DNA of 64,000 nt from Bdellovibrionales bacterium (GTDB lineage: Bacteria; Bdellovibrionota; Bdellovibrionia; Bdellovibrionales; JAUICD01), in contig OZ241865.1 in NCBI GenBank assembly GCA_965203275.1, forward strand, positions 64,001 through 128,000. Reading direction: 5' to 3'. Below are positions 5,030 to 61,744 of the stretch, piece by piece; the first letter of the stretch is position 1, and each line of letters opens with the position of its first letter. Made by a program: the position numbers and the translations under genes. The notes under the pieces are model-generated. The model searched no databases. It saw only the letters and a program-made list of their open reading frames with translations, and was not told where the DNA came from.

Positions 5030-5640
5030 TCCGGCAATCGGGGCAACGCATCAGATCCTGGGATGCCTGCTTGCCGGATCCCAGATAAATACCTTGTTAA
5101 GGAAACAGAGTTTCTTTTTTTTTCACTAAAAGTGGTCAAGCTTTCTAGGCAATGACCATTTTGCCAATGGCAAAAAAACATCTTGTTTCCTTAACATGTA
5201 GTCAAAAAACGAAGAGATCCTCCTTACTCAAAGTGAACAGGCTTTTGAGACGATGACCATTTTGTCAAAGGCGAAAGCCTTTGCGGTCATCGTCCAAAAG
5301 TGGCCAGAGGCCAGTTCACTTTGAGGGAAACAGAGGCTAGTTTACTTTTAGTGCAAATCAAATGAGGTGATGACCATTTTATCGACGTGAAATAAACATC
5401 TTGTTTCCCTAACATCGTCTTCATCCGGGATCCGGGATCCGGCAGTCAGGCAGTCCGGCATCAGTGAAGCAAACGTCTTGTTTCCTTAACATGGTGTTAA
5501 AAAACGAGGATATCCTCCCCTACTCAAAATGAGCAGTTTTTTGCGGCATTGCTCTTTTTAGACAGCGTAAGCTGTCAGAGCAATGCCCAAAAACACACCA
5601 GAGGTGTGGCTCATTTTGAGTGAGACAGAATCTAATGATG
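5030..5640. repeat. family A structured repeat cluster (full units 5186-5331 and 5481-5626, partial units, heptamer module)
   Basis: TTTCCYTAACA...GATCC...paired stems...CCAGAGG...AGTGAAAC architecture. Confidence 0.9.
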
Positions 5641-5641
5641 T

Positions 5642-5881
5642 TTAAGTCTTTGTTATTTTGAGGATCTCTTCTTGAGAAAGTCCAGAACATTTCATAATAG
5701 TTTGTAAGTCTATTTTATTTTTGATCATATTTAAAATAAGATCTCTTTGCCCTTCCTGTCGCCCTTCCTGTCGCCCTTTTTGCAACCCTTCTTGTAAGCC
5801 CTTTTGCAATCCTTCCTGTCGCCCTTCTTGCAGGCCTTTTTGTCGGGCATGATTTTGAATAATCTCACTAAATTTTAACAT
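5642..5881 (-). CDS. putative small C-terminal Rpn protein (RpnS-like), 79 aa
   Basis: In-frame ATG at 5881 preceded by AAGGAG; intact downstream of the insertion. Confidence 0.5.
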   Translation of the reverse strand: MLKFSEIIQNHARQKGLQEGRQEGLQKGLQEGLQKGRQEGRQEGQRDLILNMIKNKIDLQTIMKCSGLSQEEILKITKT

Positions 5882-6108
5882 AACATCTCCTTGCCTTTGT
5901 TTTATTTCTTCCCCTACTTCTTCCATTGTTTTGATTAAAAGCTTTTCTGCCATGTTTCCATCGTATGTGCAGAAATACCTTACCAAATCATTTGTCATCT
6001 CTATTATATCTAACTTATCACCACTTTCATAGTCCTTTTCATTAATAATATCATCTTTTTGTAATCTACCCACTTCTCTTTCGACAATTAAAATATTTTC
6101 CCTTATTT

Positions 6109-6444
6109 GTTTCACTAAAAGTAAACTAGCCTCTGGCTACTTTTGGGCATTGCTCTGACAGCTGTCGCTGTCCAAAAAGAGCAATGCCTCAAAAGTTCGT
6201 TTACTTTTAGTAAAGAGGATCTCCTTGCTTCTTAACACCATGTTAAGGAAAAAGAGTTTCATTTGTAAACCCGCTTGCTCTTGAGGTAATAAAAAAACTT
6301 TTTCCTTAACATGCTGTAAAGGAATAAAAGGATCCTCTCTACTCAAAATGAACAAGCTTTTGAGGTAGCTAGCCTTTTACGACGGCGGTAGCCGTCGGGC
6401 TAGCTACCCAAAAGTGGCCAGAGGCCAGTTCATTTTGAGTGAAA
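6109..6444. mobile_element. head-to-head composite of two family A units with a shared central spacer, inserted in the rpn gene
   Basis: Minus unit 6109-6251, spacer, plus unit 6301-6444; outer ends TTTCACT...AGTGAAA are inverted. Confidence 0.7.
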
Positions 6445-6877
6445 GAATAAAACAAGAATGAACGGATTGTACTTTGATGCTCTATGTTGAAAACAAGCTT
6501 TACAATCAAGTGAGAATTCTTCAATTTAACCGCAACAACTAGGTCACAAAGACCTTTCATATATCCAGAAAACTCTCCTTTTTCTATTGTGAGCGTTTTT
6601 AAATCTATGATGTTTAAGAGTTTCGAAGGCAATGTGATTTCAAGAAAGGCCATCGCAATAATTTTTTTTGAAAAAAGCCGTTGAAAAGCAATGTTATGAG
6701 GATGGGCTTTTGAAGAAGTGTCCTGTTGCATTTGTTTGATCTGCTTTGATTTTGATGGCATGACTGCTCCTTATTGTTCCTTTAGGTTCACTTGAAATTG
6801 CATGTCTCTTATTAACTACATGAATTTTAAAACTATATCTTTGTTTGTTCTCGACTGCAAGCAAGAACATTCGGTTT

Positions 6878-7373
6878 GTTTCATTAAAAGTGGGCTGTTT
6901 CACTAAAAGTGGGCTGTTTCACTAAAAGTGGGCTGTTTCACTCAAAATGAGCCACACCTCTGGTGTGTTTTTTGGTGTTGCCTGCAAAGGCTTTCGCCTT
7001 TGACAAAATAGGCAACACCTAAAAAATCCGCTCATTTTGAGTAGGGAAGGATCTCCTTGCTTTTAACACAATGTTAAGGAAACAAGATATTCGCTTCATC
7101 CTTGCCTGTCTGCTTGATGCCGGGTTGCCGGATCCCGGATCCCGGATAAACACGATGTTAAGGAAACAAGCTATTTATATTTATTTCACTCCCGGGATCC
7201 GGGATCAGGCAATCTGACATCCCGGGATCCCGGAACTGATGCCGGGTTGCCGGATCCCGGATCCCGGATAAACAGGATGTTAAGGAAACAAGATTTCCTT
7301 CTGATGTTTGCTCTGACAGCTATCGCTGTCTAAAAAGAGCAATGTCGCAAAAAACTGCTCATTTTGAGTGAAA
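6878..7373. repeat. family A cluster: 3x19-bp tandem end repeat, minus unit 6935-7082, heptamer modules
   Basis: GTTTCACTAAAAGTGGGCT x3 at 6878-6934 (one mismatch in the first copy); CCGGGAT-type heptamers at ~7118-7270. Confidence 0.9.
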
Positions 7374-7417
7374 AAGAATAAAATAGATCTTTTTTGATGC
7401 TTTTTGGATGTACTTAG

Positions 7418-9103
<1,686 letters not shown>

Positions 9104-9104
9104 T

Positions 9105-9910
9105 GTTCATCCGGGATCTGGGATCCCGGACTGCCTGCTTGCCCGATCCCGGATCCCGGGAGCAAATGTTTTGTTTCCTTAACATGTAGTCAAAAAACGA
9201 AGATATCCTCTCTACTAAAAGTGGTCAAGCTTTCTAGGCGATGACCATTTTATCGACGTGAAGTAAGCATCTTGTTTCCTTAACATCGTGTCAAGAGACG
9301 AGAGGATCCTTTCTACTAAAAATAAACGGATTTTTGAGGCATTGCTCTTTTTGGACAGCGTATAGCTGTCAGAGCAATGCCCAAAAACAGCCAGAGGCTG
9401 GTTTATTTTTAGTGAAACAGAATCTAAAAGAAAATAAAAAAAAACAAAAAAATGAACTCACTCTGGGATCCGGGATCCGGGATCCGGCAGTCAGGCAGAG
9501 ATGAAGCAAACGTCTTTTTTCCTTAACATGGTGTTAAAAAACGAGGAGATCCTCCCTACTCAAAATAAATGGATTTTCTAGGCAGTTAGCCTTTGATCGA
9601 CGACGACAGTCGTCGGGCTAACTGCCAGAAAACATGCCAGAGGCATGATGCATTTTGAGTGAAACAAACCCTTAACATGTGGTTAAGGGACGAAGGGATC
9701 CTTCCTACTAAAAGTGGTCAGGCTTTCTAGGTGATGACCATTTTATCGACGTGAAGTAAGCATCTTGTTTCCTTAACATCGTGTCAAGAGACGAGAGGAT
9801 CCTTTCTACTAAAAATAAACGGATTTTTGAGGCATTGCTCTTTTTGGACAGCGTATAGCTGTCAGAGCAATGCCCAAAAACAGCCAGAGGCTGGTTTATT
9901 TTTAGTGAAA
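9105..9910 (+). repeat. family A cluster (units 9275-9418, 9518-9665, 9768-9910; heptamer modules)
   Basis: Unit architecture; ~9242-9417 is duplicated at ~9735-9910. Confidence 0.9.
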
Positions 9911-10388
9911 TAATAAAAGGCCCAATAATATACAAAGAAATCAAGTTAAATTCAAAATTCAGCAATGAATTTCTGACCGATCACCTCAAAATTGACCTTC
10001 CGATTCTCTGAAAAAAGCTTAACCTGGTGAATATATGAAATTAGAGATAGAAGGTTCAAGGAAGGGAAATTTTGAGGGAAACAGTCCACATATCTCTGAA
10101 AGAGGTACGTACGGGTAGATGAGGATCAACGAAGTTAGATAATAAAAGGCCCAATAATATACAAAGAAATCAAGTTAAATTCAAAATTCAGCAATGAATT
10201 TCTGACCGATCACCTCAAAATTGACCTTCCGATTCTCTGAAAAAAGCTTAACCTGGTGAATATATGAAATTAGAGATAGAAGGTTCAAGGAAGGGAAATT
10301 TTGAGGGAAACAGTCCACATATCTCTGAAAGAGGTACGTACGGGTAGATGAGGATCAACGAAGTTAGATAATAAAAGGCCCAATAATA
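9911..10388 (+). repeat. family B element, exact tandem duplication with 229-bp period
   Basis: TAATAAAAGGCCCAATAATA at 9911, 10140 and 10369; diverged relatives at 40156-40682 (minus strand) and fragments at ~15231, ~39741, ~61470 and ~61676. Confidence 0.9.
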
Positions 10389-10398
10389 GAAAAAAACA

Positions 10399-10999: not shown

Positions 11000-12115
11000 A
11001 TGGAAGTTATAGAAGTCAAAAACCAATCCCATCTTCGTCAATTTTTAAAATTACAACCACGTATCTATAAAGATCAGCCCCATTATGTTTGTCCTTTAAA
11101 TATTCTTGTGAAAAAAATGATCAAAGGATTGCATGTTCCCCAACAACATTTATTAATGGCTACCGAAAATAATCAATATATTGCTCGCATAGCTTTTAAG
11201 GTTCATAAATACAAATCTCAAACCTTTCTTCATTTTGGATTTTTTGATTGTGTAGAAGGATACAGCAAAGCAGTCAGTCAGCTCATTGCATGGGGCCGTA
11301 ATAAATATCCTCATTGGATTTTGAAAGGTCCTTATCATTTCACTATGGAAGATCCCTATATAGGTGTTTTAGTGGAAGGTTTTGATCAAGATCCTTATTT
11401 TTTAATGCCTTATAATTTTGCTTATTACGATGACTATTTACAAAAAGCTGGATTGAAAAAAGCTATGGACCTTTTTACTTATCAACTCACCAGAGAAAAT
11501 ATAGATCAACTACTAGCTCCCCTCCAACCTCAAGCACAAAAGGCACAAGAGCAAGGTATTACTGTTCGCTTTCCTCACCCTAAAAACCATCAAGAGTTTA
11601 AAGAAGAAGGCTATAAAGCTGTGAATATCTTTAATGACGCTCTTTCTGACAATTGGAATTTTGAAACATTTCAAGAAGCTCAGGCCAAAGAGTTAATTCA
11701 ATTTTTTAAATATTTATTAGATATGCGTATGGTGGCTTTTGCTATGAAGGATGGTCAAGAGATTGGTTGTTTAGTTATGGTCCCTAACTATAACCAGCTT
11801 ATTAAACCACATAAAGGTAAAATCACACCATTGTTGATCTACAAATACTTTCGAAGATATAAATATATTTCAAGTACAAGAGGTTATGTCTTAGGAGTTA
11901 AGAAGAAATACCATAGCATGGGTGTTGGTAGCTTACTGACAGTGAAGGTGTTTGAACAAGGCATGAAGTGTGGATATCAAGTGGGTGAAATTTCATGGAT
12001 TTTAGGCAATAACGATAAAATGAATCGGCTAGCTCAAACCATGTCAAAAGAAAATCAACATAACAAAGTTTATCGTGTATATGAGGCTCCACCTTTAAAT
12101 GAAAATTCTAAATAG
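11000..12115 (+). CDS. GNAT-like acyltransferase (YghO-like)
   Basis: HFGFFDC, PYFLMPYN, GVKKKYHSMGVG, EISWILGNNDKM, KVYRVY motifs. Confidence 0.75.
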   Translation: MEVIEVKNQSHLRQFLKLQPRIYKDQPHYVCPLNILVKKMIKGLHVPQQHLLMATENNQYIARIAFKVHKYKSQTFLHFGFFDCVEGYSKAVSQLIAWGRNKYPHWILKGPYHFTMEDPYIGVLVEGFDQDPYFLMPYNFAYYDDYLQKAGLKKAMDLFTYQLTRENIDQLLAPLQPQAQKAQEQGITVRFPHPKNHQEFKEEGYKAVNIFNDALSDNWNFETFQEAQAKELIQFFKYLLDMRMVAFAMKDGQEIGCLVMVPNYNQLIKPHKGKITPLLIYKYFRRYKYISSTRGYVLGVKKKYHSMGVGSLLTVKVFEQGMKCGYQVGEISWILGNNDKMNRLAQTMSKENQHNKVYRVYEAPPLNENSK

Positions 12116-13238
12116 CAAAAATGACATTCAAAATATCAACATCCAAAAAATATCTATTTTAAATTTTGTATCTTTATGGACTCAACAAAATGCCTCTCAA
12201 AATAATGTGTTTTTAGATGTACGATCCGAGAGAGAATTTTCAAATCAAAAGCTCCCTTTATTTACTTCTGCCTCACTTTTAAATAATCAGCAACATGCTC
12301 TGATAGGTACTATTTATAAGCAACAGGGAGCAGATCAGGCTCTAAAAGAAGGGTTCAGACTGTCACAGCTTCATTTAGAAGAAAGATTAAAACTTTGGAA
12401 AACCCTCACACAATCAAAAAATGTTTTTATTATTTGTCTCAGAGGAGGTTTGCGTTCTCGCATTGTCGCTCACTATGTGCAGCACCTTGCACATAAATGT
12501 TATCAAGTGGAAGGAGGTTATAAAGCTTTACGTTCTTTCTTGTTAGATCAGTTAAAATATTTAAACAAATATACTTTTTATATTCTCACAGGGAAAACAG
12601 GAAGTGGAAAAACAAAACTCCTCAATGAACTTAAAATGGAAGGAGTCATTGATTTAGAAAAGTTAGCTGATCACAAAGGTAGTAGCTTTGGCTATTATAT
12701 AGATCGAAAGCAACCCACTCAATCGAGTTTTGAAAATGCCTTATTGTTTGAATTATTAAAAGGCAGATTTTCACAAGATCATCCTTTTTATCTCTTAGAA
12801 GACGAAAGTCATTTGATTGGACATAATTTCATACCCAATCCTATAAAAGAAAAAATGCGATTATCGCCTGTGATTTATTTAGATGCAGATATTGAAGTGA
12901 GGTCGCAACGGATTTTTGAGGAATATATTTTAATGCCTTTAAAACAAGGTATTTCAAAGCAAGCTTTATTAGAGCATGGTTTGATGGGTCTTCAAAAAAT
13001 TGCCAAACGTTTGGGACATAAACAATTTGATTTATTAAAAAAATCTATGGTAGAAGCTTTTTATCAAAGTTTTATAGACAAAGAGAGTCACTTAAAATAT
13101 ATTCGTAAATTATTAGAGGTTTATTATGACAAACGATATGACTTTGCTTTTAATAAGAGTAAAAGTTCAAGAGAAGTTTTATTTAAAGGCTCTTTTAAGG
13201 ACTGCAAACTATGGCTAAACAACAACCTTACACCATAA
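12099..13238 (+). CDS. selU: tRNA 2-selenouridine synthase
   Basis: Rhodanese DVRSEREF and CLRGGLRS; P-loop GKTGSGKT; DLEKLADHKGSSFG; EDES; adjacent to selD. Confidence 0.93.
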   Translation: MKILNSKNDIQNINIQKISILNFVSLWTQQNASQNNVFLDVRSEREFSNQKLPLFTSASLLNNQQHALIGTIYKQQGADQALKEGFRLSQLHLEERLKLWKTLTQSKNVFIICLRGGLRSRIVAHYVQHLAHKCYQVEGGYKALRSFLLDQLKYLNKYTFYILTGKTGSGKTKLLNELKMEGVIDLEKLADHKGSSFGYYIDRKQPTQSSFENALLFELLKGRFSQDHPFYLLEDESHLIGHNFIPNPIKEKMRLSPVIYLDADIEVRSQRIFEEYILMPLKQGISKQALLEHGLMGLQKIAKRLGHKQFDLLKKSMVEAFYQSFIDKESHLKYIRKLLEVYYDKRYDFAFNKSKSSREVLFKGSFKDCKLWLNNNLTP

Positions 13239-14302
13239 AACTCACACAAACTGTCAAAAAGGGCGGATGTGCTTCAAAGCTTCCAGCAAAACATTTAAAG
13301 TCCATTTTACAAGAACTCTCTTTGAGATCTTCACCTCATTTATTGACACAATTTCAAACATGGGACGACGCTGCTGTGTGGGATTTAAAAAACAATGATT
13401 TTAAAAATAATACAGCCGCTTTAGTTCAAACTTTAGATTTTTTTACACCTATTGTAGATGACCCTTATACCTTTGGACAGATTGCAGCAGTCAATGCCAT
13501 GAGTGATGTGTATGCTATGGGGTGTCAGCCTCGTTTGACACTTTGTATTTTAGCTTTCCCTGCAAAAACTTTAGATATAGAAGTCATAAAACCTTTAATG
13601 GAAGGAGCTTTAGAGAGAATTCATAAAGCAGGAGCCGTGTTGGTAGGAGGTCATACCATCGATGATGAAACATTAAAATTGGGTTTTGTTGCCAGTGGTT
13701 TTGTAGATAAAAATCATTTTTGGAGTCATGCTAAGGCTCAAATAGGTGATCAACTGATTTTGACAAAGGCTTTAGGGGTAGGGACTTTAGTTTCTGCTTA
13801 TAAAAAACAAAATACACATCAAACAGAAAGATGGCTTAAAGGAGCTATCTCTAGCATGATTCAATTAAACAATGTGATTGATTTTTGTAAAATCAGAGAT
13901 GTACATGCTGCCACTGATGTGACAGGGTTTGGTTTTTTAGGACATGCTTGTCAAATGGCTAAAGCAAGTGGAGTTTCGTTTCAGTTAGATATTCAACAAA
14001 TTCCTCAATTACCTGGAGCTATGGATTCATTAAAGCAAGGTCACCTTGTCAAAGCCCATTATACCAATGCAGATTATGTAAAAGACCTTGTAGATTATGG
14101 GGTAGCTAAAGAAGAAATGAAATCGCTTTTAAATGACCCTCAGACCTCTGGGGGATTGTTACTGGCTGTTCCTGCTAGTTGTGCTTCTTTGTTTGTCTCT
14201 CGATTAAGCGAAGCATTTCCATGTACTCGAGTTATTGGAGATGTGACTGGAATAAAAAATAAATTAGTACATCTTTTTTCAGCAGATAAAAATGAGTGTT
14301 AA
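13211..14302 (+). CDS. selD: selenophosphate synthetase (Cys form)
   Basis: GGCASK, DFFTPIVDDPYTFGQIAAVNAMSDVYAMG, TDVTGFG, DPQTSGGLL. Confidence 0.96.
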   Translation: MAKQQPYTIKLTQTVKKGGCASKLPAKHLKSILQELSLRSSPHLLTQFQTWDDAAVWDLKNNDFKNNTAALVQTLDFFTPIVDDPYTFGQIAAVNAMSDVYAMGCQPRLTLCILAFPAKTLDIEVIKPLMEGALERIHKAGAVLVGGHTIDDETLKLGFVASGFVDKNHFWSHAKAQIGDQLILTKALGVGTLVSAYKKQNTHQTERWLKGAISSMIQLNNVIDFCKIRDVHAATDVTGFGFLGHACQMAKASGVSFQLDIQQIPQLPGAMDSLKQGHLVKAHYTNADYVKDLVDYGVAKEEMKSLLNDPQTSGGLLLAVPASCASLFVSRLSEAFPCTRVIGDVTGIKNKLVHLFSADKNEC

Positions 14303-15262
14303 AAAACAACGAGGATATCCTCTCTACTAAAAGTGGTCAGGCTTTTGAGGCGATGACCATTTTATCGACGTGAAATAAATATCTTGTTTCCTTAACATGG
14401 AGTTAAGAGACGAGAGGATCCTTCTTACTAAAAGTGGTCAGGCTTTCTAGGTTGCCAGCAGATGAAAGAACTTTTCCCTTAACATCGCGTAAAAAAAAGA
14501 AATGATCCTTTCTACTAAAAATAAACGGATTTTTGAGGCAATCAGCCTTTGATCGACGGCGACAGCCGTCGGGCTGATTGCCCAAAAACAGCCAGAGGCT
14601 GGTTTATTTTTAGTGAAAAAGATAAGAAGGCGAATAGCCTTCGGCTGGCAACCAGAAAGTGACCAGAGGTCAGAGCACTTTGAGTGAACCGGAGGCATGA
14701 TTTATTTTGAGTGAAACAAACCCTTAACATCGTATTTTTCCGGGATCCGGGGTCTGGGATCCGGGATCCGGGGTCTGGGATCCGGGATCCGGGGTCTGGG
14801 ATCCGGGATCTGGCAACCCGGCAGACAGGCAAGAATGAAGCGAATATCTTGTTTCCTTAACATGGAGTTAAGAGACGAGAGGATCCTTCTTACTAAAAGT
14901 GGTCAGACAGCAAGCTTCTCTGAAGCTTGCCATGTAACAACACTAGGCAATGACCATTTTGTCAAAGGCGAAAGCCTTTGCGGTCATTGTCCAAAAGTGG
15001 CCAGAGGCCAGTTCACTTTGAGTGAACATAAAAAGAACTTTTTCCTTAACATGGTGTTAAGAGACGAAGAGATCCTCCTTCCTAAAATTGAACAGGCTTT
15101 TGAGGCAGTTAGCCTTTGATCGACGGCGACAGCCGTCGGGCTAACTGCCCAAAAGTAGCCAGAGGCTAGTTCAATTTTAGGGAAACAGACCACTTTTAGT
15201 GAAACAGAGGCTGGTTTACATTTAGTGAAATGATGAGGATCAACGAAGTTAGACAATGGAAG
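14297..15262 (+). repeat. family A cluster with a nested unit, 10x heptamer run, unit with hairpin insert, and a family B 3' fragment
   Basis: Units ~14473-14618, 14852-15027 and 15041-15186; heptamers 14740-14809; 14426-14653 identical to 22621-22848. Confidence 0.9.
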
Positions 15263-22139: not shown

Positions 22140-22885
22140 TATGATGTTCCGTTCCTCTGGGATCTGGGATCCGGGATCCCGGGATCTGGGATCCGGGATC
22201 CGGCAACCCGGCATCAGAAAGAACTCTTTTTCCTTAACATTTCACTCAAAATGCATCATGCCTCTGGTTCACTAAAAGTAAACTAGCCTCTGGCTACTTT
22301 TGGACATTGCTCTGACAGCTTACGCTGTCTAAAAAGAGCAATGTCTCAAAAGTCCGTTTACTTTTAGTAGGAAGGATCCTTTCCTCTTTGACACGATGTT
22401 AAGGAAAAAGTTCCTTCTTACATCTTTTGCCCGCAAAGGCTTACGCATTTGACAAAATGGTCATTGCCTCAAAAATCTATGCATTTTGAGTAGAGGAGGA
22501 TCCTTTTATTCCTCTACACCATGTTAGGGAAAAAGTGCTTTTATTACCTTAAGAGCAAGCGGATTTACGAATGAGGAACTTTTTCCTTAACATGGTGTTA
22601 AAAAACAAGGAGATCCTTCCTACTAAAAGTGGTCAGGCTTTCTAGGTTGCCAGCAGATGAAAGAACTTTTCCCTTAACATCGCGTAAAAAAAAGAAATGA
22701 TCCTTTCTACTAAAAATAAACGGATTTTTGAGGCAATCAGCCTTTGATCGACGGCGACAGCCGTCGGGCTGATTGCCCAAAAACAGCCAGAGGCTGGTTT
22801 ATTTTTAGTGAAAAAGATAAGAAGGCGAATAGCCTTCGGCTGGCAACCCAAAAGTGACCAGAGGTCAGTTTACTTTTAGTGAAAA
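22140..22885. repeat. family A cluster (heptamers, minus units, central spacer, nested plus unit)
   Basis: Unit motifs; spacer TTATTACCTTAAGAGCAAGCGG at ~22540 shared with ~6270 and ~40870. Confidence 0.9.
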
Positions 22886-22889
22886 AGTT

Positions 22890-27919: not shown

Positions 27920-28281
27920 AACACGATGTTAGAAATAAGGAAATACTATTTCCGGGATCCGGGATCTGGCAACCCGGCATCAGATCCCGGGATACCTGCT
28001 TGCCGGATCCCGGGAATAAATATCTTGTTTCCTTAACATGGTGTTTATCCCAGAATCCGGGATCCGGGATCCGGGATCCGGGAATCGGGCATCAGAAGGA
28101 AATGTTTCCTTAACATGGAGTAAAAAAACGAGGAGATCCTCCCTACTAAAAGTGGTCAGACAGCAAGCTTCTCTGAAGCTTGCCATGTAACAACACTAGG
28201 CGATGACCATTTTACCGATGGCGACAGCCATCGTGGTCATCGCCAGAAAGTGACCAGAGGTCAGACCACTTTTAGTGAAAC
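27920..28281. repeat. heptamer modules plus a family A unit with hairpin insert
   Basis: CCGGGAT runs at ~27950-28092; unit ~28105-28281 with the GCAAGCTTC-TCT-GAAGCTTGC insert. Confidence 0.9.
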
Positions 28282-28297
28282 AGCAAGCGGTGATTTT

Positions 28298-39740: not shown

Positions 39741-41263
39741 TTGGACCTTCTATTGTCTAATTTCGTCTTTTTTGCACTAAAAGTGGTCTGACCTCTAGTC
39801 ACTTTCTGGTTGCCAGCCGAAGGCTATTCGCCTTCTTATTCTTTTTCACTAAAAATAAACCAGCCTCTGGCTGTTTTTGAGCTGGATCTTCAATTTATTT
39901 CTTAAATTTCAAAATCATTGCCCTGAGACCAGACTCTTTCCCATTTATATCATTAGTTTTTATCACTTTTTACTCATTTGGCTTTGAAATTCTGTGCTTG
40001 CAAATAAAAAATCTGGATGCGAATGGTAATGGGCATTGCTCTGACAGCTTACGCTGTCTAAAAAGAGCAATGCCTCAAAAATCTGTTTATTTTTAGTAAG
40101 GAGGAAGCCTTCATTTTTTACTACATGTTAAGGAAAAAGTTCCTTCTATCAAAATTCCCTCAAAATTTCCCTTCCCTGAATATTCTAATCTAATTTCGTA
40201 TATCCATCAGGTCAAGCTCATTTCAGAGAACTGAAAGGTCAATTTTGAGGAGATCGGCTAGAAAATCACTGCATAACATCTTAATATGTACTCTTTGTTG
40301 TATATATTATTCTCAATCCTTTCTTTGAACCTTCTGTCTTTGGACCTTCTATTGTCTAACTTCGTTGATCCTCATTTGGACCTTCTATTGTCTAATTTCG
40401 TTGATCCTCATCTACCCGTACGAACCTCTTTCAGAGATACGTGAACTGTTTCCCTCAAAATTTCCCTTCCCTGAATATTCTAATCTAATTTCGTATATCC
40501 ATCAGGTCAAGCTCATTTCAGAGAACTGAAAGGTCAATTTTGAGGAGATCGGCTAGAAAATCACTGCATAACATCTTAATATGTACTCTTTGTTGTATAT
40601 ATTATTCTCAATCCTTTCTTTGAACCTTCTGTCTTTGGACCTTCTATTGTCTAACTTCGTTGATCCTCATCTACCCGTACGTATTTGATTTTCACTCAAA
40701 ATAAATCATGCCTCTGTTTCACTAAAAGTAAACCAGCCTCTGGCTGTTTTTGGGCAATCAGCCCGACGGCTCACGCCGTCGATCAAAGGCTGATTGCCTC
40801 AAAAATCCGTTTACTTTGAGTAGGGCGGATCTCCTTGCTTCTGACACCATGTTAGGGAAAAAGTGCTTTTATTACCTTAAGAGCAAGTGGTTTACGAATG
40901 AGGAACTTTTTCCTTAACATGTAGTCAAGAGACGAAGAGATCCTTTCTACTAAAAGTGGTCAGGCTTTCTAGGTGATGACCATTTTATCGATGGCGAAAG
41001 CCATTGCGGTCATTGTCCATTACCATTCGCATCTAGATTTTTTATTTGCAAGCACAGAATTTCAAAGCCAAATAAGATGAAGGTTTGTACAAGCTAATGA
41101 TATGAATGGGAAAGAGTCTGGTCTCAGGGCAATGATTTTGAAATTTAAGAAATAAATTGAAGATCCAGCTCAAAAGTGGCCAGAGGCCAGTTCATTTTGA
41201 GTGAAATGTTAAGGAAAAAGTTCAGTTTTAGTACCTGATGCCGGGTTGCCAGATCCCAGATCC
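39741..41263. repeat. large mixed cluster: family A units carrying a ~152-bp insert, family B tandem (295-bp period, minus strand), central spacer, heptamer
   Basis: Insert copies at 39880-40031 (minus) and 41018-41170 (plus); family B starts at 40156 and 40451. Confidence 0.9.
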
Positions 41264-41336: not shown

Positions 41337-41735
41337 TTATTTTTTCAGCTTGAGAATGTCGTCTTTGGACAAACCTGTCATTGTAGAGATCAATGAAATA
41401 TTGAGATTTTCTTTCAACATATTTTGTGCTACTTTCTCCATTCCATCCTTACGACCTTTTTCCATCCCTTTTTCCATTCCTTTTTCCATCCCTTCCTTAC
41501 GACCTTTTTCCATCCCTTTTTCCATCCCTTTCTCCACTCCTTCCTTACGACCTTTTTCCATCCCTTTTTCCATTCCTTTTTCCATCCCTTCCTTACGACC
41601 TTTCTTCATCCCTTTCTCATAAGCACCCTCTTCTCTGGCTACTTGATCTTTTCTGTCTCTCTCTTTCACCATTGCAAGTTCCTGTAATGTCTCATCTTTT
41701 GATAATATCCATAAATGCTTTGCTGCTTCTGCCAT
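41337..41735 (-). CDS. putative internally translated RpnS-like protein, 132 aa
   Basis: AAGGGAGGT directly upstream of the in-frame ATG at 41735 (KGGI-MAEAA). Confidence 0.55.
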   Translation of the reverse strand: MAEAAKHLWILSKDETLQELAMVKERDRKDQVAREEGAYEKGMKKGRKEGMEKGMEKGMEKGRKEGVEKGMEKGMEKGRKEGMEKGMEKGMEKGRKDGMEKVAQNMLKENLNISLISTMTGLSKDDILKLKK

Positions 41736-42374
41736 AATACCTCCCTTGTTTTGAAAATTGGTATACTCCTTTAAATCCATATTACCAGAGTTCTTTAAAA
41801 GATAACACCAATCTGCCTTTTTGTCAAATAATTCATGCAAACTTGACTGAAACTTGCCTAATTCTACAATGACAAAACACAATCCACGAGACATAATCAC
41901 TTCTGGTGGTTTTGTCCGACGGATATTGCAGATATGATAGTAATCCTTTATCCCTGCAAATTCTTTTAAATTAGCTGTTGTAAAAACAAGTGAATACACA
42001 GGAAGTAATTTATTAAAATCTTCGCCTTTCTTTATCTGACCAGAATAAGCCCTAGAAGCATAAACTAATATCCGATCTGTAAAAAACTTTTGACTTGTTG
42101 TTTGAACTTCTACATGGACAATATCTGTATCTTGAAGAACGCCTCTGATCCGTCTTCTTAATTTTACACGCAAATCTAAAGTAAAGGATTTGTATTCGTC
42201 TGGAACCTTATCGGGAAGAAGCTCTGTGTTTAATAATGAAACACCCTCTATCACAGAACCCTTAGGCAAAGGCACAAAATTCTCTACCAGTGAAATTAAA
42301 AGGTCTTCTCTCTTTTCAAAAAAAGCCTTGAAAATAGCATCTATTGTTAATTGTAATAAAACTCTCTCTGTCAT
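41337..42374 (-). CDS. Rpn-family (PD-(D/E)XK nuclease / putative transposase) protein
   Basis: DAIFKAFF, LDLRV, HVEVQ, DRILVY, VELGKF; EKGM/RKEG repeats; C-terminal ISTMTGLS helix. Confidence 0.88.
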   Translation of the reverse strand: MTERVLLQLTIDAIFKAFFEKREDLLISLVENFVPLPKGSVIEGVSLLNTELLPDKVPDEYKSFTLDLRVKLRRRIRGVLQDTDIVHVEVQTTSQKFFTDRILVYASRAYSGQIKKGEDFNKLLPVYSLVFTTANLKEFAGIKDYYHICNIRRTKPPEVIMSRGLCFVIVELGKFQSSLHELFDKKADWCYLLKNSGNMDLKEYTNFQNKGGIMAEAAKHLWILSKDETLQELAMVKERDRKDQVAREEGAYEKGMKKGRKEGMEKGMEKGMEKGRKEGVEKGMEKGMEKGRKEGMEKGMEKGMEKGRKDGMEKVAQNMLKENLNISLISTMTGLSKDDILKLKK

Positions 42375-42954: not shown

Positions 42955-43358
42955 TTTTCACTAAAAATAAACCAGCCTCTGTTTCACTCAAAGTGAACTG
43001 GCCTCTGGCCACTTTTGGACAATGACCGCAAAGGCTTTCGCCTTTGACAAAATGGTCATTGTCTCAAAAGCCTGTTCACTTTGAGTAGGGAGGATCTCTT
43101 CGTTTCTTAACACCATGTTAAGGAAAATATCCTTCTAATACCAGTTAGCCCGACGGCTACCGCCGTCGATCAAAGGCTAACCGCCTCAAAAGCTTGTTCA
43201 ATTTTAGGAAGGAGGATGTCCTCATTTCTTAACACAATGTTAAGGAAAAAGTTCATTCTTACACCTCTCGACTGTCGTCGTCGATCAAAGGCTAACTCCC
43301 TCAAAAGCTTGTTCAATTTTAGTAAGGAGGATGTCCTCATTTCTTAACACAATGTTAA
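42955..43358 (-). repeat. family A cluster (minus-strand units)
   Basis: Full unit ~42981-43126 plus partial units. Confidence 0.9.
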
Positions 43359-43972
43359 TAAGGAAAATGCACCTTTTTCTTTCCACTATTCATATTATAA
43401 CTGCCAAGGCACGCATTCCAGTAATATCTGCACATCTCTTCATGATATTTCTTTTGTAACTGCCATATCTTTCGTGCAGAAGTGCCAAAGTATTGACCAT
43501 TGCCAGAGAGTACAGTATTGCCACCAATCCTAGCATCACCAGCGACAATAACACTGCCACGGACCTGAGCATTGCCAGCAACCACAGCTTCACCAGCAAC
43601 TACAGCATTGCCAGAAATCACAGAATTACCAGAGACCCTAGACCTGCTAAAGATCCTAGCACCGCCACGGACAGTAGCATCTTCAGAAACCTCAGCTTCG
43701 CCATTGACAGTAGCATTTTCAGAAACCCTAGCATTGTTATGGACCAGAGCATAGTCCAAAATCTTAGCATTGTCAGAGACCTGAGCATAATCGCAAACAG
43801 TAGCATGTGGCCCTACAAAAACTGTTGCGTCTACCAAAGCTGTATTGGCTACAAACCCACCACCACGATGTATATAGCCTTCAACACCTTCACCACAAGG
43901 TGTGTTTGCTAAAGCAAATACATTCAATGACATACTCAATAAAAATACCATTATTACATTTATAAACTTCAT
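43355..43972 (-). CDS. secreted left-handed beta-helix (hexapeptide repeat) protein
   Basis: Signal peptide; GGFVANTALV; AxVxxN hexapeptide repeats. Confidence 0.8.
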   Translation of the reverse strand: MKFINVIMVFLLSMSLNVFALANTPCGEGVEGYIHRGGGFVANTALVDATVFVGPHATVCDYAQVSDNAKILDYALVHNNARVSENATVNGEAEVSEDATVRGGARIFSRSRVSGNSVISGNAVVAGEAVVAGNAQVRGSVIVAGDARIGGNTVLSGNGQYFGTSARKIWQLQKKYHEEMCRYYWNACLGSYNMNSGKKKVHFPY

Positions 43973-45141: not shown

Positions 45142-45155
45142 AAGATATCGCGTTT

Positions 45156-45692
45156 GTTTCACTAAAAGTAAACTGACCTCTGGTCACTTTTGGGTTGCCA
45201 GCCGAAGGCTATTCGCCTTCTTATCTTTTTCACTAAAAATAAACCAGCCTCTGTTTCCCTAAAATTGAACTAGCCGTCATTTTCACTCAAAATGCATCAT
45301 GCCTCTGGCATGTTTTTGGGCAATGACCGCAATGGCTTTCGCCATTGACAAAATGGTCATTGCCTCAAAAATCTATGCATTTTGAGTAGGGAGGATCTCC
45401 CTGTCTCTTGACACCATGTTAAGGAAAATATCCTTCTAATAGTTTGCCCGACGGCTACCGCCGTCGATCAAAGGCTAAGCTGTTTCACTAAAAGTGGTCT
45501 AGCCTCTGGCTACTTTCTGGCAATGACCGCAATGGCTTTCGCCATTGGCAAAATGGTCATCGCCTAGAAAGCCTGACCACTTTTAGTAGGAGGATCCTTT
45601 CCTCTTTTAACATCATGTTAAGGAAACAAAATGCTTTCAAAATTATATTAAAAGAGCAATGCCTCAAAAATCTATGCATTTTGAGTGGAAAC
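45156..45692 (-). repeat. family A cluster (minus units and stuttered ends)
   Basis: Units ~45280-45427 and ~45482-45625, with partial ends. Confidence 0.9.
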
Positions 45693-54392: not shown

Positions 54393-54860
54393 GATGGTGA
54401 CCATTTTGCCAACGTGAAGTAAACATCTCTTGTTTCCTTAACATGTAGTTAAGAGATGAGGAGATCCTTCTTACTAAAAGTAAACGGATTTTTGAGGCAA
54501 TCAGCCTTTTATCGACGGCAAGAGCCCAAAGGTGTAAGAAGGAACTTTTTCCTTAACATGGTGTTAAAAAATGAGGAGATCCTCCTCTACTCAAAATGAG
54601 CAGTTTTTTGCGGCATTGCTCTTTTTAGACAGCGTAAGCTGTCAGAGCAATGCCCAAAAACACACCAGAGGTGTGGCTCATTTTGAGTGAAACAACTAAC
54701 TCCTTACTCAAAGTGAACAGGCTTTTGAGACGATGACCATTTTGTCAAAGGCGAAAGCCTTTGCGGTCATCGTCCAAAAGTGACCAGAGGTCAGTTCACT
54801 TTGAGTGAAACAAACTCCTTAACATGGTGTTTATCCGGGATCTGGGATCCCGTATCCCAG
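54393..54860 (+). repeat. family A cluster
   Basis: Units ~54548-54692 and ~54700-54811 are near-identical to the 5481 and 5186 units. Confidence 0.9.
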
Positions 54861-55009: not shown

Positions 55010-56035
55010 ATGAAAAAACCAAGCAAGAATTTAAGTTTAACAAAAGATCGTAATTTCAAGGCCTTCTTTACAAGGAAGAAAAAGCTTTTGATTTCGATAA
55101 TGGAGAATTTTCTTCCATTGCCAGAGGGTTCTGTAATAGAAGACATTCATATATTAAATACAGAACTTCCATCGGATAAATTCCCGGAGGAGTATAAATT
55201 TTTTGTTTTAGATTTGCGAGTACAATTAAGAAGAAGGATTAATGGCATTCTTCAAAATACAGAGACAGCGAATGTAGAAGTTCAAACAACAGCTCAAAAG
55301 CATTTTACGGATAGGTTACTGATGTATCTATCTCGGCTCTATTCAGGTCAAATTAAGAAAGGGGAGAATGTTGATAAGTTACTTCCCGTGTATTCATTGG
55401 TTTTCACAACTGTAAATTTAAAAGAATTTGAAGGAATAAAGGACTACTATCATGTTTGCAATATTCGTCGGACAGAGCATCCAGAAGTAGTGATGTCTCG
55501 GGGTATGAGTTTTGTGATAGTAGAATTAGATAAATTTCAGTCCCAATTAGGAGAATTATTTGACATAAAAGAGAATTGGTGTTATTTTTTAAAGAGGTCA
55601 GGTCAGATGGACCAAAAGGAATATTTATATTTCAAAGATAAAGGAGGAATCATGGCAGAAGCAGCTGAGCATTTATGGATATTATCAAAAGATGAGACAT
55701 TACAAGAGCTTGATATGGTGAAAGAGAGAGCTAGGAGGGATCAAGTAGACAGAGAAGAATTTGTTCGTGACGAGGGTCGTGAGGAAGGTCTTGAGAAGGG
55801 TTTTAAGAAGGGTCTTGAGAAGGGTATTGAGAAGGGTATTGAGAAGGGTATTGAGAAGGGTCGTGAAGAAGGTATTGATAAGGGTATTAAGAAGGGTCTT
55901 GAGAAAAAACAAAAAGAAATTGCACTTAAACTAATTGAGAGAAATGCAAAATTACAAGATATCTGTGAAATCACTGGCCTATCAGAAGCAGAAATCAAAA
56001 AAATTCGCCAATCGTTTTCACTCAAAGTGAAGTGA
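55010..56035 (+). CDS. Rpn-family (PD-(D/E)XK) protein, paralog of 41337..42374
   Basis: DRNFKAFF, LDLRV, NVEVQ, DRLLMY; EKGI repeats; ICEITGLS; the last codons come from the repeat end. Confidence 0.88.
   Translation: MKKPSKNLSLTKDRNFKAFFTRKKKLLISIMENFLPLPEGSVIEDIHILNTELPSDKFPEEYKFFVLDLRVQLRRRINGILQNTETANVEVQTTAQKHFTDRLLMYLSRLYSGQIKKGENVDKLLPVYSLVFTTVNLKEFEGIKDYYHVCNIRRTEHPEVVMSRGMSFVIVELDKFQSQLGELFDIKENWCYFLKRSGQMDQKEYLYFKDKGGIMAEAAEHLWILSKDETLQELDMVKERARRDQVDREEFVRDEGREEGLEKGFKKGLEKGIEKGIEKGIEKGREEGIDKGIKKGLEKKQKEIALKLIERNAKLQDICEITGLSEAEIKKIRQSFSLKVK
55652..56035 (+). CDS. putative internally translated RpnS-like protein, 127 aa
   Basis: AAGGAGG at 55641-55647 before the in-frame ATG at 55652. 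Confidence 0.55.
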   Translation: MAEAAEHLWILSKDETLQELDMVKERARRDQVDREEFVRDEGREEGLEKGFKKGLEKGIEKGIEKGIEKGREEGIDKGIKKGLEKKQKEIALKLIERNAKLQDICEITGLSEAEIKKIRQSFSLKVK

Positions 56036-56062
56036 CCAGAGGTCAGTTCACTTTGAGTGAAA
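56016..56062. repeat. collapsed mini family A element
   Basis: TTTCACTCAAAGTGAA-gTGACC-AGA-GGTCA-GTTCACTTTGAGTGAAA: two inverted ends around the small hairpin. Confidence 0.85.
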
Positions 56063-56143
56063 CAACATAGATTTTCTAAAATTCTGCCACAAAAACAAAA
56101 ACCTAGTGGCACAAAATCTCTTTCGACTCATAACCTACTGATT

Positions 56144-57701: not shown

Positions 57702-57763
57702 ATTGTACCTACCTTGATAAATATTGAAAAAAGGGCCATTTTTTAGTGATTCTAAATGACCTT

Positions 57764-58177: not shown

Positions 58178-58235
58178 GGATTTCTAATTTTCAAATACTT
58201 TTTTCACTATCTTTTAGAAAAAATACAGAGATTAC

Positions 58236-58797
58236 GAACATCTTGTTTCCCTAACATGGTTTTCATCTGGGATCCGGGATCTGGCAATCAGGCAAACCGG
58301 CATCAGAAGGAAAAGGTGTAAGAAAGAGCTTTTTCCCTAACATCGTGTTAAATGAGAAATGGATCCTCATTACTAAAAGTGGTCAGGCTTTCTAGGTGAT
58401 GACCATTTTATCGACGGCGTGAGCCGTCGTGGTCATCGCCAGAAAGTAGCCAGAGGCTAGACCACTTTTAGTGAAACAAACCCTTAACATTGTGTTAAGA
58501 AATGAGGACATCCTCCTTCCTAAAATTGAACAAGCTTTTGAGACAGTTAGCCTTTGATCGACGGCGAGAGCCGTCGGGCTAACTGTCCAAAAGTAGCCAG
58601 AGGCTAGACCACTTTTAGTGAAACAAACCCTTAACATCGTGTTAAGAAATGAGGACATCCTCCTTCCTAAAATTGAACAAGCTTTTGAGACAGTTAGCCT
58701 TTGATCGACGGCGAGAGCCGTCGGGCTAACTGTCCAAAAGTAGCCAGAGGCTAGTTCAATTTTAGGGAAACAGAGGTCAGTTCACTTTGAGTGAAAA
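58236..58797 (+). repeat. family A head-to-tail array (three units, ~147-bp period) plus heptamer module
   Basis: Junctions GAAAC-AAAC-CCTTAACA at ~58473 and ~58620. Confidence 0.9.
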
Positions 58798-58859
58798 TGA
58801 CGGCTTGACTTTTGAGATATATGCGGTTATAAAATCAAAAATTCAAATGGAAGGTACAA

Positions 58860-60659
58860 ATGAAGAAATATATTTTTATCCTATTTATTATTTTGTTTAC
58901 CGCTAGTGATTCTCTATGGGCTTGTGCTGAAAGTCTTATGCCACAAAACCAAATGGATGACAAAATACATATACAAAGAGATATACTCAGAGAATTTGGT
59001 CCTCGCTCTCAAGATATATTATCTAAAGCTTCATTAATAGCTTATGCTTCTGGGTCTCAAACAGTGAATGTGAACCACATTATTTTAGCTACTATGACGC
59101 GTGTTGAATCTTTAAATGGAAGAACCAATCGTTTAAATGAGATATATCTCATAGACTACACCCATCATTTTTATAATTTTGCTCTTATTTTAAAAGAATT
59201 AAATATTTTAAAAAGAGTGCAAGAGCTTCTTTTAAGTCAATTAGATGTTCAGACTCGTAACTCCATATCAACTGAAAAGCACAATAATGATTTACTTGTT
59301 CTTCATTTCGGAGATCTCTTTTTTATACCTACACTTCCTTATGATGAGAGTGCCAAAGCCTTATTGGAAAGAACTATTGTTGAGAAAAAAGATGGGATTT
59401 TATATAGGTGGAATCTAGGTAATAAAATTTTTTTCGTTCCTACATTTGACGAGAATTTATTCCTAGTAGCTTCGAAGATGAATACAGTTATTAGAGAAGT
59501 TTTAAATGAGAATGAAGTATTCAAACTTAGTAAAGTTTTATTGAAGGATATTGAGGAAGGCCAGATTGAGATTGTAAAAGAGATGCTAAAGCAGGGTATA
59601 CCTCCTGATATTCAAGATGAAAATGGCAAAGCACCTCTAATGCAAGCAGTTTCTTCTGGTCAGATTGAGATTGCAAAGTTTTTACTAGCGAACGGAGCGG
59701 ATGTCAATCTTCAAGCCAAAGATGGCACTACAGCCTTAATGCAGGCTGTTTCTCAGCACCATACAGAGCTTGTAAAATTATTGCTAGGAGCTGGAGCGGA
59801 CGTCAATCTTCAAGACAATCGTGGCAGAACGGCCTTAATGTTGGCTAATGCTGAAAATACAAAGCTATTGCTAGAAGCTGGGGCCAAAGTCAATCTTCAA
59901 GCCAAAGATGGCACTACAGCCTTAATGATGGCTGCTTTCGATGCTAAGCTTTTAATGCTGTTGCTAAAAAACGGAGCAGATCCAGATATTCAAGACGATC
60001 TTGGTAGAACGGTCTTAATGATTATTAGTCGGCGAGAAGGGCATGAGGGTAATTTAATGCTGTTGCTAACAAAAGAAGGAGCAGATGTCAATATTCAAGA
60101 CAAAGAGGGTATTACGGCTTTACATTTTGCCACTTTGAACAATTTTACTACCTATGTAAATATATTGCTAGCGATCGATGCAGATCCAAATCTTCAAGCC
60201 AAAGATGGCACTACGGCTTTACATTTGGCTTGTAGGTATAGTCGTCCTAAAATTGTAAAGCAATTACTAGATAACGGTGCAGATCCAGACATTCAAGATG
60301 TGGGTGGCAATACGCCCTTAATCTGGGCTAGCCTTTACGGACATCTTAATAGTGTAAAAGCCTTGCTGGAAGCTGGTGCCAACATTCATATCCAAAATCA
60401 TGGTCTCCACCTCACAGCTTTAAGTATTGCTAGGGAAAATGGACATACTAAGATTGTAAATCTCTTAAGGAAGACGGAAATTATACAAAGGATGATTGAT
60501 GAAGGGTATACCGAGAGTGCAAATCTCTTAAAGGATGCCAATTTTACAAGGGATATCGGCGGTGAGATTCCTGAGTTTACAGCACCTGAGATTATAAAGC
60601 TCTTAAGGGATGCCGGTTTTACAGAACAAGCCCAACACGAACATTGGCAAAATCATTAA
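58860..60659 (+). CDS. secreted ankyrin-repeat protein with a Clp-N-like N-terminal region
   Basis: Signal peptide; ~9 ankyrin repeats (GADVNLQAKDGTTALM). Confidence 0.85.
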   Translation: MKKYIFILFIILFTASDSLWACAESLMPQNQMDDKIHIQRDILREFGPRSQDILSKASLIAYASGSQTVNVNHIILATMTRVESLNGRTNRLNEIYLIDYTHHFYNFALILKELNILKRVQELLLSQLDVQTRNSISTEKHNNDLLVLHFGDLFFIPTLPYDESAKALLERTIVEKKDGILYRWNLGNKIFFVPTFDENLFLVASKMNTVIREVLNENEVFKLSKVLLKDIEEGQIEIVKEMLKQGIPPDIQDENGKAPLMQAVSSGQIEIAKFLLANGADVNLQAKDGTTALMQAVSQHHTELVKLLLGAGADVNLQDNRGRTALMLANAENTKLLLEAGAKVNLQAKDGTTALMMAAFDAKLLMLLLKNGADPDIQDDLGRTVLMIISRREGHEGNLMLLLTKEGADVNIQDKEGITALHFATLNNFTTYVNILLAIDADPNLQAKDGTTALHLACRYSRPKIVKQLLDNGADPDIQDVGGNTPLIWASLYGHLNSVKALLEAGANIHIQNHGLHLTALSIARENGHTKIVNLLRKTEIIQRMIDEGYTESANLLKDANFTRDIGGEIPEFTAPEIIKLLRDAGFTEQAQHEHWQNH

Positions 60660-61744
60660 CATGATGTTGATCCAGGATCTGGGATCCGGGATCTGGCAAG
60701 CGGGCAACAGATGTAAGAAGGAACCTCCCTAACCCCACCCACCGCCCTTCGATTCTGCTTTCCCATTTTGTTTTTATTTGAGGATGGGGCAGTGTGAGCC
60801 TTCCGAAGTCCTCAATTTTTTTCACTCAAAATGAACTGGCCTCTGGCCACTTTTGGGTAGCCAGCCCGACGGCTCTCGCCGTCGTAAAAGGCTGGCTACC
60901 TCAAAAGCTTGTTCATTTTGAGTAGAGGAGGATCCTTTTATTCCTCTACACCATGTTAGGGAAACAAGATATGCCTCTAAAATGTTTTTGGAGAGCAAGC
61001 TCAATTTGCGGAAGATCTCCAGTCTCCCACTGCCCCATCCTCCTCCCTAATTACTTCTTTTTTGAAAATTACGCAGAATCTAAAAAAAATAAAAAAACAA
61101 AAATACGAATATCTTGTTTCCTTAACATGGTGTTAAAAAATGAGGGGATCCTCCTTCCTAAAATTGAACAAGCTTTTGAGGGCATCAGGCAGAAAAGGCA
61201 TTTTGTTTCCTTAACATGGTGTTAAGAGACAAGAAGATCCTCCCTACTAAAAGTGGTCAGGCTTTCTAGGTGATGACCATTTTATCGATGTGAAGTAAAC
61301 ATCTTGTTTCCTTAACATGGTGTTAAGAGACAAAGAGATCCTTCCTACTAAAAGTAAACGGACTTTTGAGATAGCCAGCCTTTGATCGACGGCGGTAGCC
61401 GTCGGGCTGGCTATCCAAAAGTGACCAGAGGTCAGTTTACTTTTAGTGAAACAAATTCTTGATTTGGTGGATGTACGAAGTTAAAAATAAAAGATTCAAA
61501 GAAGGGAAATTGATAGAAGGAACTTTTTCCTTAACATCCTGTCAAAAAACGAAGGGATCCTCCCCTACTAAAAGTAAACGAACTTTTGAGACAATGACCA
61601 TTTTGTCAAAGGCGAAAGCCTTTGCGGTCATTGTCCAAAAGTGACCAGAGGTCAGTTTACTTTTAGTGAGCCAATGCACGTATCTCTGAAAGAGGTGCGT
61701 ACGGGTAGACGAAAACACATGAAGTTAGACAATAAAAGGTCCAA
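60655..61744. repeat. mixed cluster: heptamers, family A units, family B fragments
   Basis: Units ~60820-60964 (minus), ~61307-61452 and ~61526-61670; family B 3' end ~61676-61744. Confidence 0.9.

Follow-up and report, generated by a model that had tools for sequence, protein, structure and literature searches.

A dispersed three-way-junction repeat in a Bdellovibrionales genome: selection on one folded strand and insertion without target duplication

The stretch of DNA considered here (the window; 64 000 nt, bases 64001–128000 of the single-contig 2.57-Mb Bdellovibrionales genome that we call G000) carries many copies of a ~145-base non-coding unit lying between genes, and the question that it raises is what this unit is. 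An initial annotation of the window proposed either an unrecognised structured non-coding RNA (ncRNA) or a folded-DNA substrate of a mobile system. The second option fits our data better, with the reservation that our searches found no dedicated transposase or fixed cleavage motif: the unit spreads by copying and inserts without target duplication or target motif. We give an even chance to the reading that it is a non-autonomous selfish repeat whose folded single-stranded DNA (ssDNA) serves as the template for copying into nicks or breaks, the mechanism being template switching. Four related genomes (G001–G004) served for comparison, and the strand on which the initial annotation read the element is termed the F strand.

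Copies were detected by hidden Markov model (HMM) search of the window and of the whole of G000. The window returned 57 hits, comprising 25 near-full copies (17 on the + strand, 8 on the − strand), one headless copy (54700–54813) and a remainder of fragments or weak antisense self-hits, in line with the 25–30 near-complete copies first reported. G000 returned 1570 hits, of which 803 were near-full and evenly divided between the strands; an addition to the first description is that truncated pieces are about as numerous as whole copies. The window is not an assembly artefact, because contigs of all four public sequencing runs compared span it and pile up on its arrays; those of a sponge-metagenome run carry long stretches of it with few differences. 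No contig of these four runs held an empty allele at a unique site.

The element folds into a three-way junction. Helix P1 forms its base, from which a long arm (P2, bulged A, P3, T-rich bulge and P4) and a short arm (P5 with an AGA loop) extend. In a reference copy, the parts are arranged as follows:

15041–15189, + strand: reference full copy
15041–15052, + strand: head, with the weak hairpin P0 at 15045–15061
15081–15093 and 15169–15181, + strand: P1 arms
15097–15102 and 15150–15155, + strand: P2 arms, followed by the bulged A at 15103
15104–15114 and 15139–15149, + strand: P3 arms, with the T-rich bulge at 15115–15120
15121–15138, + strand: P4, with its GNNA loop at 15128–15131
15156–15168, + strand: P5 with AGA loop
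15182–15189, + strand: tail

For the arm analysis, 596 of 624 anchor-to-anchor units of G000 were parsed. P1 arms were perfectly paired in 493 of the 596 (shuffled mean 83, maximum 100), P2 arms in 561 (shuffled mean 196), P3 arms in 452 (shuffled mean 48) and P5 arms in 552 (shuffled mean 104); the pairing of P4 (596/596) was not counted, since P4 was defined by hairpin search and the figure is circular. Genome-wide extraction, a check suggested in the initial annotation, found arms complementary far above shuffles. The six P1 arm pairs quoted there were all located, and units 5186 and 54700 do show the paired P5 difference, along with one further base change close to the 3′ end. In a set of 37 copies drawn from three assemblies, pairing holds for 97 % of cells, and both sides vary in 31 of the 42 pairs; the covariation score was reached by 0/500 shuffles and slid controls gave 34–48 %, in a test whose structure was derived from the same sequences and in which relatedness was not removed. 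Nearly all helix changes in this set were clean Watson–Crick swaps, a T·G at the base of P1 was invariant (37/37), and three copies folded at z = −7.6 to −11.0 on either strand. A correction concerns the ~40-nt head, where the 5′ arm of P0 is kept in sequence and the hairpin does not covary.

Shuffling between copies takes place at the level of whole helices. P1, P3, P4 and P5 types occur in many combinations in the allele tables. In 69 copies the left P1 arm is not the usual one for the 3′ block, and 43 of these keep the matching right arm. As a single crossover between linear copies would unpair the arms, the helices appear to reassort as pairs, although shared ancestry may explain some cases. 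The core is inverted between the P1 arms in 10 copies (824 are normal), with inversions at P3 and P4 too, so that copying of one arm onto the other may account for part of the covariation; the covariation also rests on 4–12 common alleles per helix and not on hundreds of independent events. It is possible to go further and hold that the covariation is mostly mechanical, arising through arm-onto-arm template switching, with passive spread by conversion or rearrangement in a small-population symbiont and no selection on the fold. Clean Watson–Crick swaps, core inversions and the small number of common alleles (P1, 9; P2, 4; P3, 12; P5, 7) agree with this, as do the lack of an sbcD match in G000 and the duplication of 11 % of its non-element DNA. 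However, arm copying predicts neither the excess of G·T over A·C among recurrent variants described below nor the fixed GNNA loop, and the invariant bulges and fixed junction geometry common to G000 and G001 do not follow from it either. Copies with P1, P2, P3 and P5 all paired also belong more often to multi-copy allele combinations (261/361) than copies with a break (92/235). A mainly mechanical origin is, in our view, very unlikely. Loss of sbcD was itself considered as an explanation and rejected, since it does not match the element's distribution: sbcD is present in G001, which nonetheless carries 254 copies.

Which strand folds can be read from the mismatches. On the F strand of G000, 27 arm pairs carried a recurrent single G·T mismatch and 6 an A·C mismatch (p = 0.0003), and private substitutions were symmetric (C>T 50, G>A 54); the F strand is therefore the folded form. 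A sample of 39 units from G001 showed the same trend (G·T 9, A·C 2, p = 0.07). These counts support the original proposal that selection acts on the fold, and make that selection strand-specific. Folding energies did not separate the two strands. The apex of P4 is GCGNNAGC in 481/596 copies, GCGNNNAGC in 50 and ACGNNAGT in 43, and 199 of 524 P4 tetraloops are GNYA (pyrimidine third), outside the RNA GNRA class. In the sections consulted, PMC13037366 describes GCGNNAGC as an unusually stable DNA mini-hairpin, much weaker in its RNA form, that binds single-stranded-DNA-binding protein (SSB) poorly and is present at the priming sites of phages G4, St-1 and alpha3.

Could the element nevertheless be a host-beneficial structured RNA (regulatory, stabilising or processing) that has been amplified? 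The elaborate three-way junction, the covariation in two species and the intergenic position of 600/624 units (24/624 lie inside called open reading frames, ORFs) would suit such a role. Against it, none of 4227 Rfam families matched in the window, consistent with the initial failure to recognise a known family, and the element was not found outside one genus. Broken pieces are about as frequent as whole copies, copies disrupt genes, and divergent (74/328) and convergent (75/327) gene gaps are equally occupied. Unit 3′ ends do point at adjacent genes (96 vs 25 at ≤100 nt from a stop codon; 84 vs 7 before a start codon), but there is no clear sense bias between co-directional genes (173 vs 140, p = 0.07). 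The dispersed, self-nesting and truncated copies and the insertion alleles, together with the lack of a clear sense bias, favour a mobile repeat over a family of RNA genes, and we regard a host RNA as extremely unlikely. The element is accordingly a warning case for RNA-motif screens, because strong covariation here stems from a mobile repeat.

The copies and fragments in the window, many of them in arrays, are arranged as follows:

5091–5629, + strand: array with full copies 5186–5334 and 5481–5629, a 5′ fragment 5091–5171, a 3′-end fragment past 5334 and family B heptamers between
6107–6446, both strands: head-to-head doublet (6107–6251 on −, 6301–6446 on +) splitting an Rpn gene
6933–7376, − strand: full copy 6933–7082, fragment 7299–7376, family B repeats and head pieces
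9174–9912, + strand: array with full copies 9275–9421, 9518–9667 and 9768–9912 and 5′ fragments 9174–9258 and 9669–9751
14297–15189, + strand: array with full copies 14474–14621, 14852–15026 (long variant with an extra hairpin) and 15041–15189 and fragments 14297–14370, 14387–14460 and 14626–14688
22264–22887, mixed strands: array with full copies 22264–22407 (−) and 22669–22816 (+) and fragments 22430–22532 (−), 22582–22655 and 22821–22887
28105–28283, + strand: long variant, an additional hairpin lying between P1 and P3
39770–41206, mixed strands: array just downstream of the Rpn gene at 41337–42374, with full copy 40713–40860 (−) and fragments 39770–39835, 39841–39883 and 40031–40136 (−) and 40909–41019 and 41167–41206 (+)
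42978–43364, − strand: full copy 42978–43126 and 5′ fragments 43142–43248 and 43269–43364
45154–45626, − strand: full copies 45280–45427 and 45480–45626 and fragments 45154–45220 and 45435–45478
54433–54813, + strand: 5′ fragment 54433–54526, full copy 54548–54694 and the headless copy 54700–54813
56030–56064, + strand: 3′-end fragment at the stop codon of the Rpn gene at 55010–56035
58332–58774, + strand: three tandem full copies (58332–58479, 58481–58626 and 58628–58774)
60817–61670, mixed strands: array with full copies 60817–60964 (−), 61307–61454 and 61526–61670 (+) and 5′ fragments 61117–61188 and 61206–61289

With their companion repeats, arrays make up 9.7 % of G000 (8.4 % with a stricter mask). 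Family B consists of degenerate 7-base repeats interleaved with the element (window 5060–5089, 5425–5462, 7114–7265, 9111–9157, 9457–9507, 14740–14833, 22151–22223 and 27946–28101), and these repeats also bracket four-helix-bundle (PF05635) genes in G000, G001 and G004. At 6895–6945, the element's terminal 20 bases are tandemly expanded, three times over.

Four insertions could be compared with an intact paralogue, and none showed a target duplication. The insertion at G000:1827540 fills a clean gap and brings 14 additional bases on the head side and 5 on the tail side. The one at G000:1109526 replaces 15 nt, that in a G001 four-helix gene replaces 2 nt, and the window doublet at 6107–6446 replaces 325 nt of the Rpn gene. 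Two arrays have long flank duplications and G001 shows tandem amplifications of unit plus flank; short flanking direct repeats were not in excess over controls (200 G000 units, 66 G001 units). The junctions are fuzzy, lying 1–16 nt beyond the last conserved base at the 3′ end and 9–33 nt beyond the head, and no target motif or common dinucleotide was present at 90 3′ and 43 head junctions into non-repeat DNA. Rather than being random additions, the tails are heritable alleles that go with the P1 type. Copies carry a variable extra flank of a few to ~30 bases at both ends, often replace target DNA and have invaded older copies. Pairing of linker and head by snap-back was in modest excess in G000 (0.20 vs 0.10), with none clear in G001. 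Identical full units form 45 groups; in 14 of these the flanks differ on either side in every member, which points to recent spread. None of 904 heads belonged to an autonomous parent with an ORF inside the element. Four CRISPR arrays with different repeat types lie near G000:C1 245300, 369700, 1995000 and 2266400; element copies have invaded two of them, one spacer is nearly common to a Cas12a-type array and the array at 2266400, and 0/47 spacers match the element.

Truncation is polar: 502 of 1117 3′ ends lack their own head, and 270 of 904 heads are cut short, 193 of them being followed by a new head. Such 5′-truncated copies, common here, would also fit a retroposon of the short interspersed nuclear element (SINE) type, in which a borrowed reverse transcriptase (RT) starts at the 3′ tail of an F-strand RNA and copies it into nicked DNA; the A-rich 3′ tail and the variable target deletions and duplications fit as well. 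The mostly GNRA loops and three RT matches of G001 point the same way, although only one of these RTs has an element copy ~440 nt away, as expected by chance. Yet G000 has no RVT_1 match, not even a candidate, and carries 892 heads against 254 in G001; its GNYA loops and its heritable, P1-linked tails also speak against an RNA intermediate, which we consider unlikely. We take two of the G001 RTs to be of group II intron type and one to be retron-like; the latter (590 aa, fused to an N-terminal domain; G001:C1 near 2650500–2652300, L015) is the one with the copy ~440 nt downstream. A retron-like reading of the element itself, with the long arm as msd, was dropped, there being no invariant branching G after P1 and no RT.

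The absence of target duplication is also expected if a REPIN/BIME-like element is cut and rejoined in trans by an HUH enzyme (Y1/RAYT or IS91-type) that has been lost, is too divergent or resides on an unassembled replicon. The strand-specific folded substrate with bulged bases, the mosaic nested arrays and the predominance of head-to-head (80) over tail-to-tail (13) pairs are in keeping with this; REPINs likewise show compensatory changes and fold as ssDNA, according to the part of PMC3116915 consulted, and G001 has one IS200-type Y1 gene. However, Y1 HUH (PF01797) had no match in G000 (the control matched in 6/14 genomes), and the G001 gene has no element copy within 1.5 kb. TnpA-REP cuts at CT or CA set by a guide tetranucleotide in the material seen of PMC8266576, whereas our 90 and 43 junctions have no common dinucleotide. 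An HUH enzyme acting in trans is, on balance, doubtful.

Other enzyme searches gave no partner. IS110 recombinase (PF01548) was absent from G000 and G001; the TnpB search (PF07282) found only one ~1350-aa protein beside a CRISPR array and no TnpB in G000; IS91 Y2 (PF04986) had no match in four genomes, but its control was silent everywhere; and GIY-YIG searches gave one 610–650-aa match per genome, UvrC-sized. The two tyrosine recombinases of G000 (~310 and ~190 aa) are kept in relatives without the element, which does not flank them. A stand-alone ~187-aa tyrosine recombinase consisting of the catalytic domain only (G000:C1:2047788–2048352; also L136, L137) is conserved in G000, G001 and G002. 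Motif scans of 1803 called genes found no linked mobiliser. The element's ends form a mutual imperfect inverted repeat of ~11 bp and differ from the ends of the IS256-like and IS1634-like elements, the first of which inserts into the element. The spacing within the head spoke against its being a dif-like site.

The four-helix-bundle gene was tried as a partner, with 14, 19 and 19 copies in G000, G001 and G004 and none in G002 and G003, and was rejected, as the G004 element copies are likely contamination and four G004 loci examined have no head motif. Although 8/9 intact four-helix genes in G000 have an element copy within 150 nt, the tie is not specific, because in G004 proper the gene occurs with heptamer arms and without the element. 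A hairpin with arms covarying between genera covers the ribosome-binding site of this gene (G000:C1:2111804–2112109 and paralogues; L017, L020 and L026 in G004). In G004, several four-helix cassettes begin right after the upstream gene's stop codon, and a different dispersed structured repeat flanks a four-helix gene on contig C12 (L023).

Of the genes near the element, those for Rpn nucleases stand out. The window holds three:

5642–6761, − strand: Rpn (YhgA-like, PF04754) gene in two pieces (6369–6761 and 5642–6115) around the doublet, a candidate nick source and target
41337–42374, − strand: full-length Rpn-type PD-(D/E)XK nuclease gene (PF12784), with element copies 120 nt downstream
55010–56035, + strand: full-length Rpn-type PD-(D/E)XK nuclease gene (PF12784), ending in an element 3′-end fragment

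In G000, 42/44 Rpn ORFs and 18/20 intact Rpn genes have an element copy within 150 nt, compared with 50/175 other multicopy genes and 328/1530 remaining genes; the 18 belong to several subfamilies and have different junctions. We know of no substrate to which the old label of Rpn proteins, putative transposases, has been tied. In the portion of PMC5350276 consulted, RpnA is a slow non-specific endonuclease whose products prime polymerase, and it promotes RecA-independent template-switch joining. Rpn nucleases are thus the best candidate for a nick source in G000. All three window genes (41337–42374, 55010–56035 and, for the first, the piece 5642–6115) have 12-bp repeat tracts near the 3′ end; such tracts are described for Rpn toxin/internal antitoxin pairs. 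Rpn genes in G001 (L104, L106, L110, L063) are preceded by a sequence resembling a sigma-54 promoter.

On the template-switching reading, the F strand, when exposed at a replication fork, nick or gap, would fold into the three-way junction, with a DNA mini-hairpin as its cap. A 3′ end set free by a nick or break at another site might anneal near the A/C-rich 3′ tail; a host polymerase would then copy toward the head, often stopping early, and finally switch back onto the target. If such switching also takes place between folded copies, it could reshuffle and flip whole helices, and arms would stay paired if only well-folded copies serve as templates. More tentatively, the element may be free of any transposase, its folded strand excluding SSB via the mini-hairpin and being copied by host replication and repair enzymes through primase- or nick-started template switching; at the same tentative level, whole helices may recombine between folded copies like duplex DNA, possibly fed by Rpn nucleases. 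A literature search for single-strand initiation or primase, a non-autonomous element and template switching together found nothing.

Several observations weigh against copying of folded ssDNA by template switching. All steps of the mechanism are inferred, none having been directly observed, and an RNA copy of the F strand predicts the same truncation polarity. G·T pairs discriminate neither DNA nor RNA, and the loops of 58 G001 units examined are mostly GNRA closed by T-A, not the canonical DNA mini-hairpin, and fit RNA equally well. In G000, where there is hardly any skew to set it against, the element showed no replication-strand orientation bias; the tails are not enriched in any CT-type primase triplet, and the test for junction microhomology is confounded by sibling copies. 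RpnA has no preference for cruciforms in the part of PMC5350276 consulted. Finally, just 1/17 Rpn loci in G001 has a copy within 150 nt (three more within ~320 nt, 13 with none within 1.5 kb), so the Rpn link may instead reflect tolerated or favoured disruption of toxic genes, or paralogue conversion.

The element is restricted to one genus. Of 151 genomes of the order searched with a covariance model, G000, G001 and G004 contained it; in a set of 151 genomes of the phylum, G000 alone did. Its copies in G004 are confined to three small contigs (C1, C4 and C11; L007–L009), and C11 carries a second rplB that is 96 % identical to that of G001 and 69 % identical to G004's own, suggesting that these contigs are misbinned and that the copies are most likely contamination from the same genus. 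Pattern scans gave 0 hits in JGI metagenomes and IMG/VR and only chance-level hits in phage and plasmid records; a scan of genome contigs found at least 13 loci, those listed all belonging to one record. A literature search, which did not cover subscription-only papers, did not find the family described.

Structured intergenic repeats are common in bacteria, their copying mechanism being mostly unknown or assumed to involve an HUH or DDE transposase. The element works like a non-autonomous structured repeat of REPIN or bcr1 type but fails the defining tests of REP/RAYT, miniature inverted-repeat transposable elements (MITEs) and attC. Like REPIN/REP/BIME with RAYT, as portrayed in the sections seen of PMC3116915 and PMC8266576, it has hundreds of intergenic copies, compensatory changes, a single-strand substrate, clustered mosaic arrays and no internal transposase. 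In contrast to the short stem-loop doublet that these sections give for REPIN, it is a ~105-nt three-way junction with a 40-nt head, and, set beside their account of REP/RAYT, it has no GTAG-type guide or fixed cleavage dinucleotide, G000 has no RAYT and single units insert alone. The bcr1 repeat of the Bacillus cereus group is, in the excerpts consulted, likewise ~150 bp, dispersed, mobile and multi-stemmed with compensatory changes, but has 5-bp flanking direct repeats and is transcribed (PMC3184786); our element has no target duplication, its ends are fuzzy and its helices reassort between copies. As far as the sources seen describe it, integron attC also conserves structure over sequence on one DNA strand and has bulged bases, whereas the element has neither a linked integron integrase-sized partner nor cassette arrays, and its junctions (offsets 1–16 nt) are not at a fixed point. 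The initiation sites of phages G4, St-1 and alpha3 and of RSF1010 (ssiA) share the GCGNNAGC-type mini-hairpin capping an ssDNA stem (PMC13037366, in part), but these are single-copy origins, and the element aligns to phages and plasmids no better than chance and has no primase triplet enrichment in its tail.

MITEs (ERIC, Correia, RUP) are short, non-coding and high in copy number. The element shares these traits, and its imperfect 11-bp inverted repeat is reminiscent of MITE ends; however, it lacks a fixed target-site duplication, its ends are imprecise and they match neither resident insertion sequence (IS) family (IS256-like and IS1634-like screened). It differs from IS91/ISCR in having no fixed target tetranucleotide at its junctions, and from retrons and retroposons in that G000 encodes no cognate RT.

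With ~600 full copies, the family provides statistics on strand-specific selection for a three-way fold, and it lacks every HUH/DDE transposase footprint that was tested. It offers a way to test two points: whether host template switching is enough for such repeats to spread, and whether DNA is mobilised in nature by Rpn/YhgA-like nucleases. Should the transposase-free possibility hold, the element would represent bacterial mobile DNA of a class whose only defining features are a fold and host machinery.

Multicopy genes abound in G000, among them ankyrin, pilin, Rpn, four-helix-bundle, IS256-like and IS1634-like genes, the last two names being our reading of the protein sequences. Pfam annotation took in 14 window proteins. 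At 29964–31485 on the − strand there is a split HipA-like pair, a HipA C-terminal kinase domain gene being followed by a Couple_hipA plus helix-turn-helix (HTH) gene, and adjacent genes at 12099–14302 on the + strand presumably encode tRNA 2-selenouridine synthase and selenide-water dikinase. In G001, tandem units of the element and a tRNA-like fragment ending in CCA recur with a period of ~230 bp (C1 near 1103600–1104300, L121), and elsewhere (L024; L011:4430–4460) a small hairpin with a conserved 8-base loop and a covarying stem alternates with element copies.

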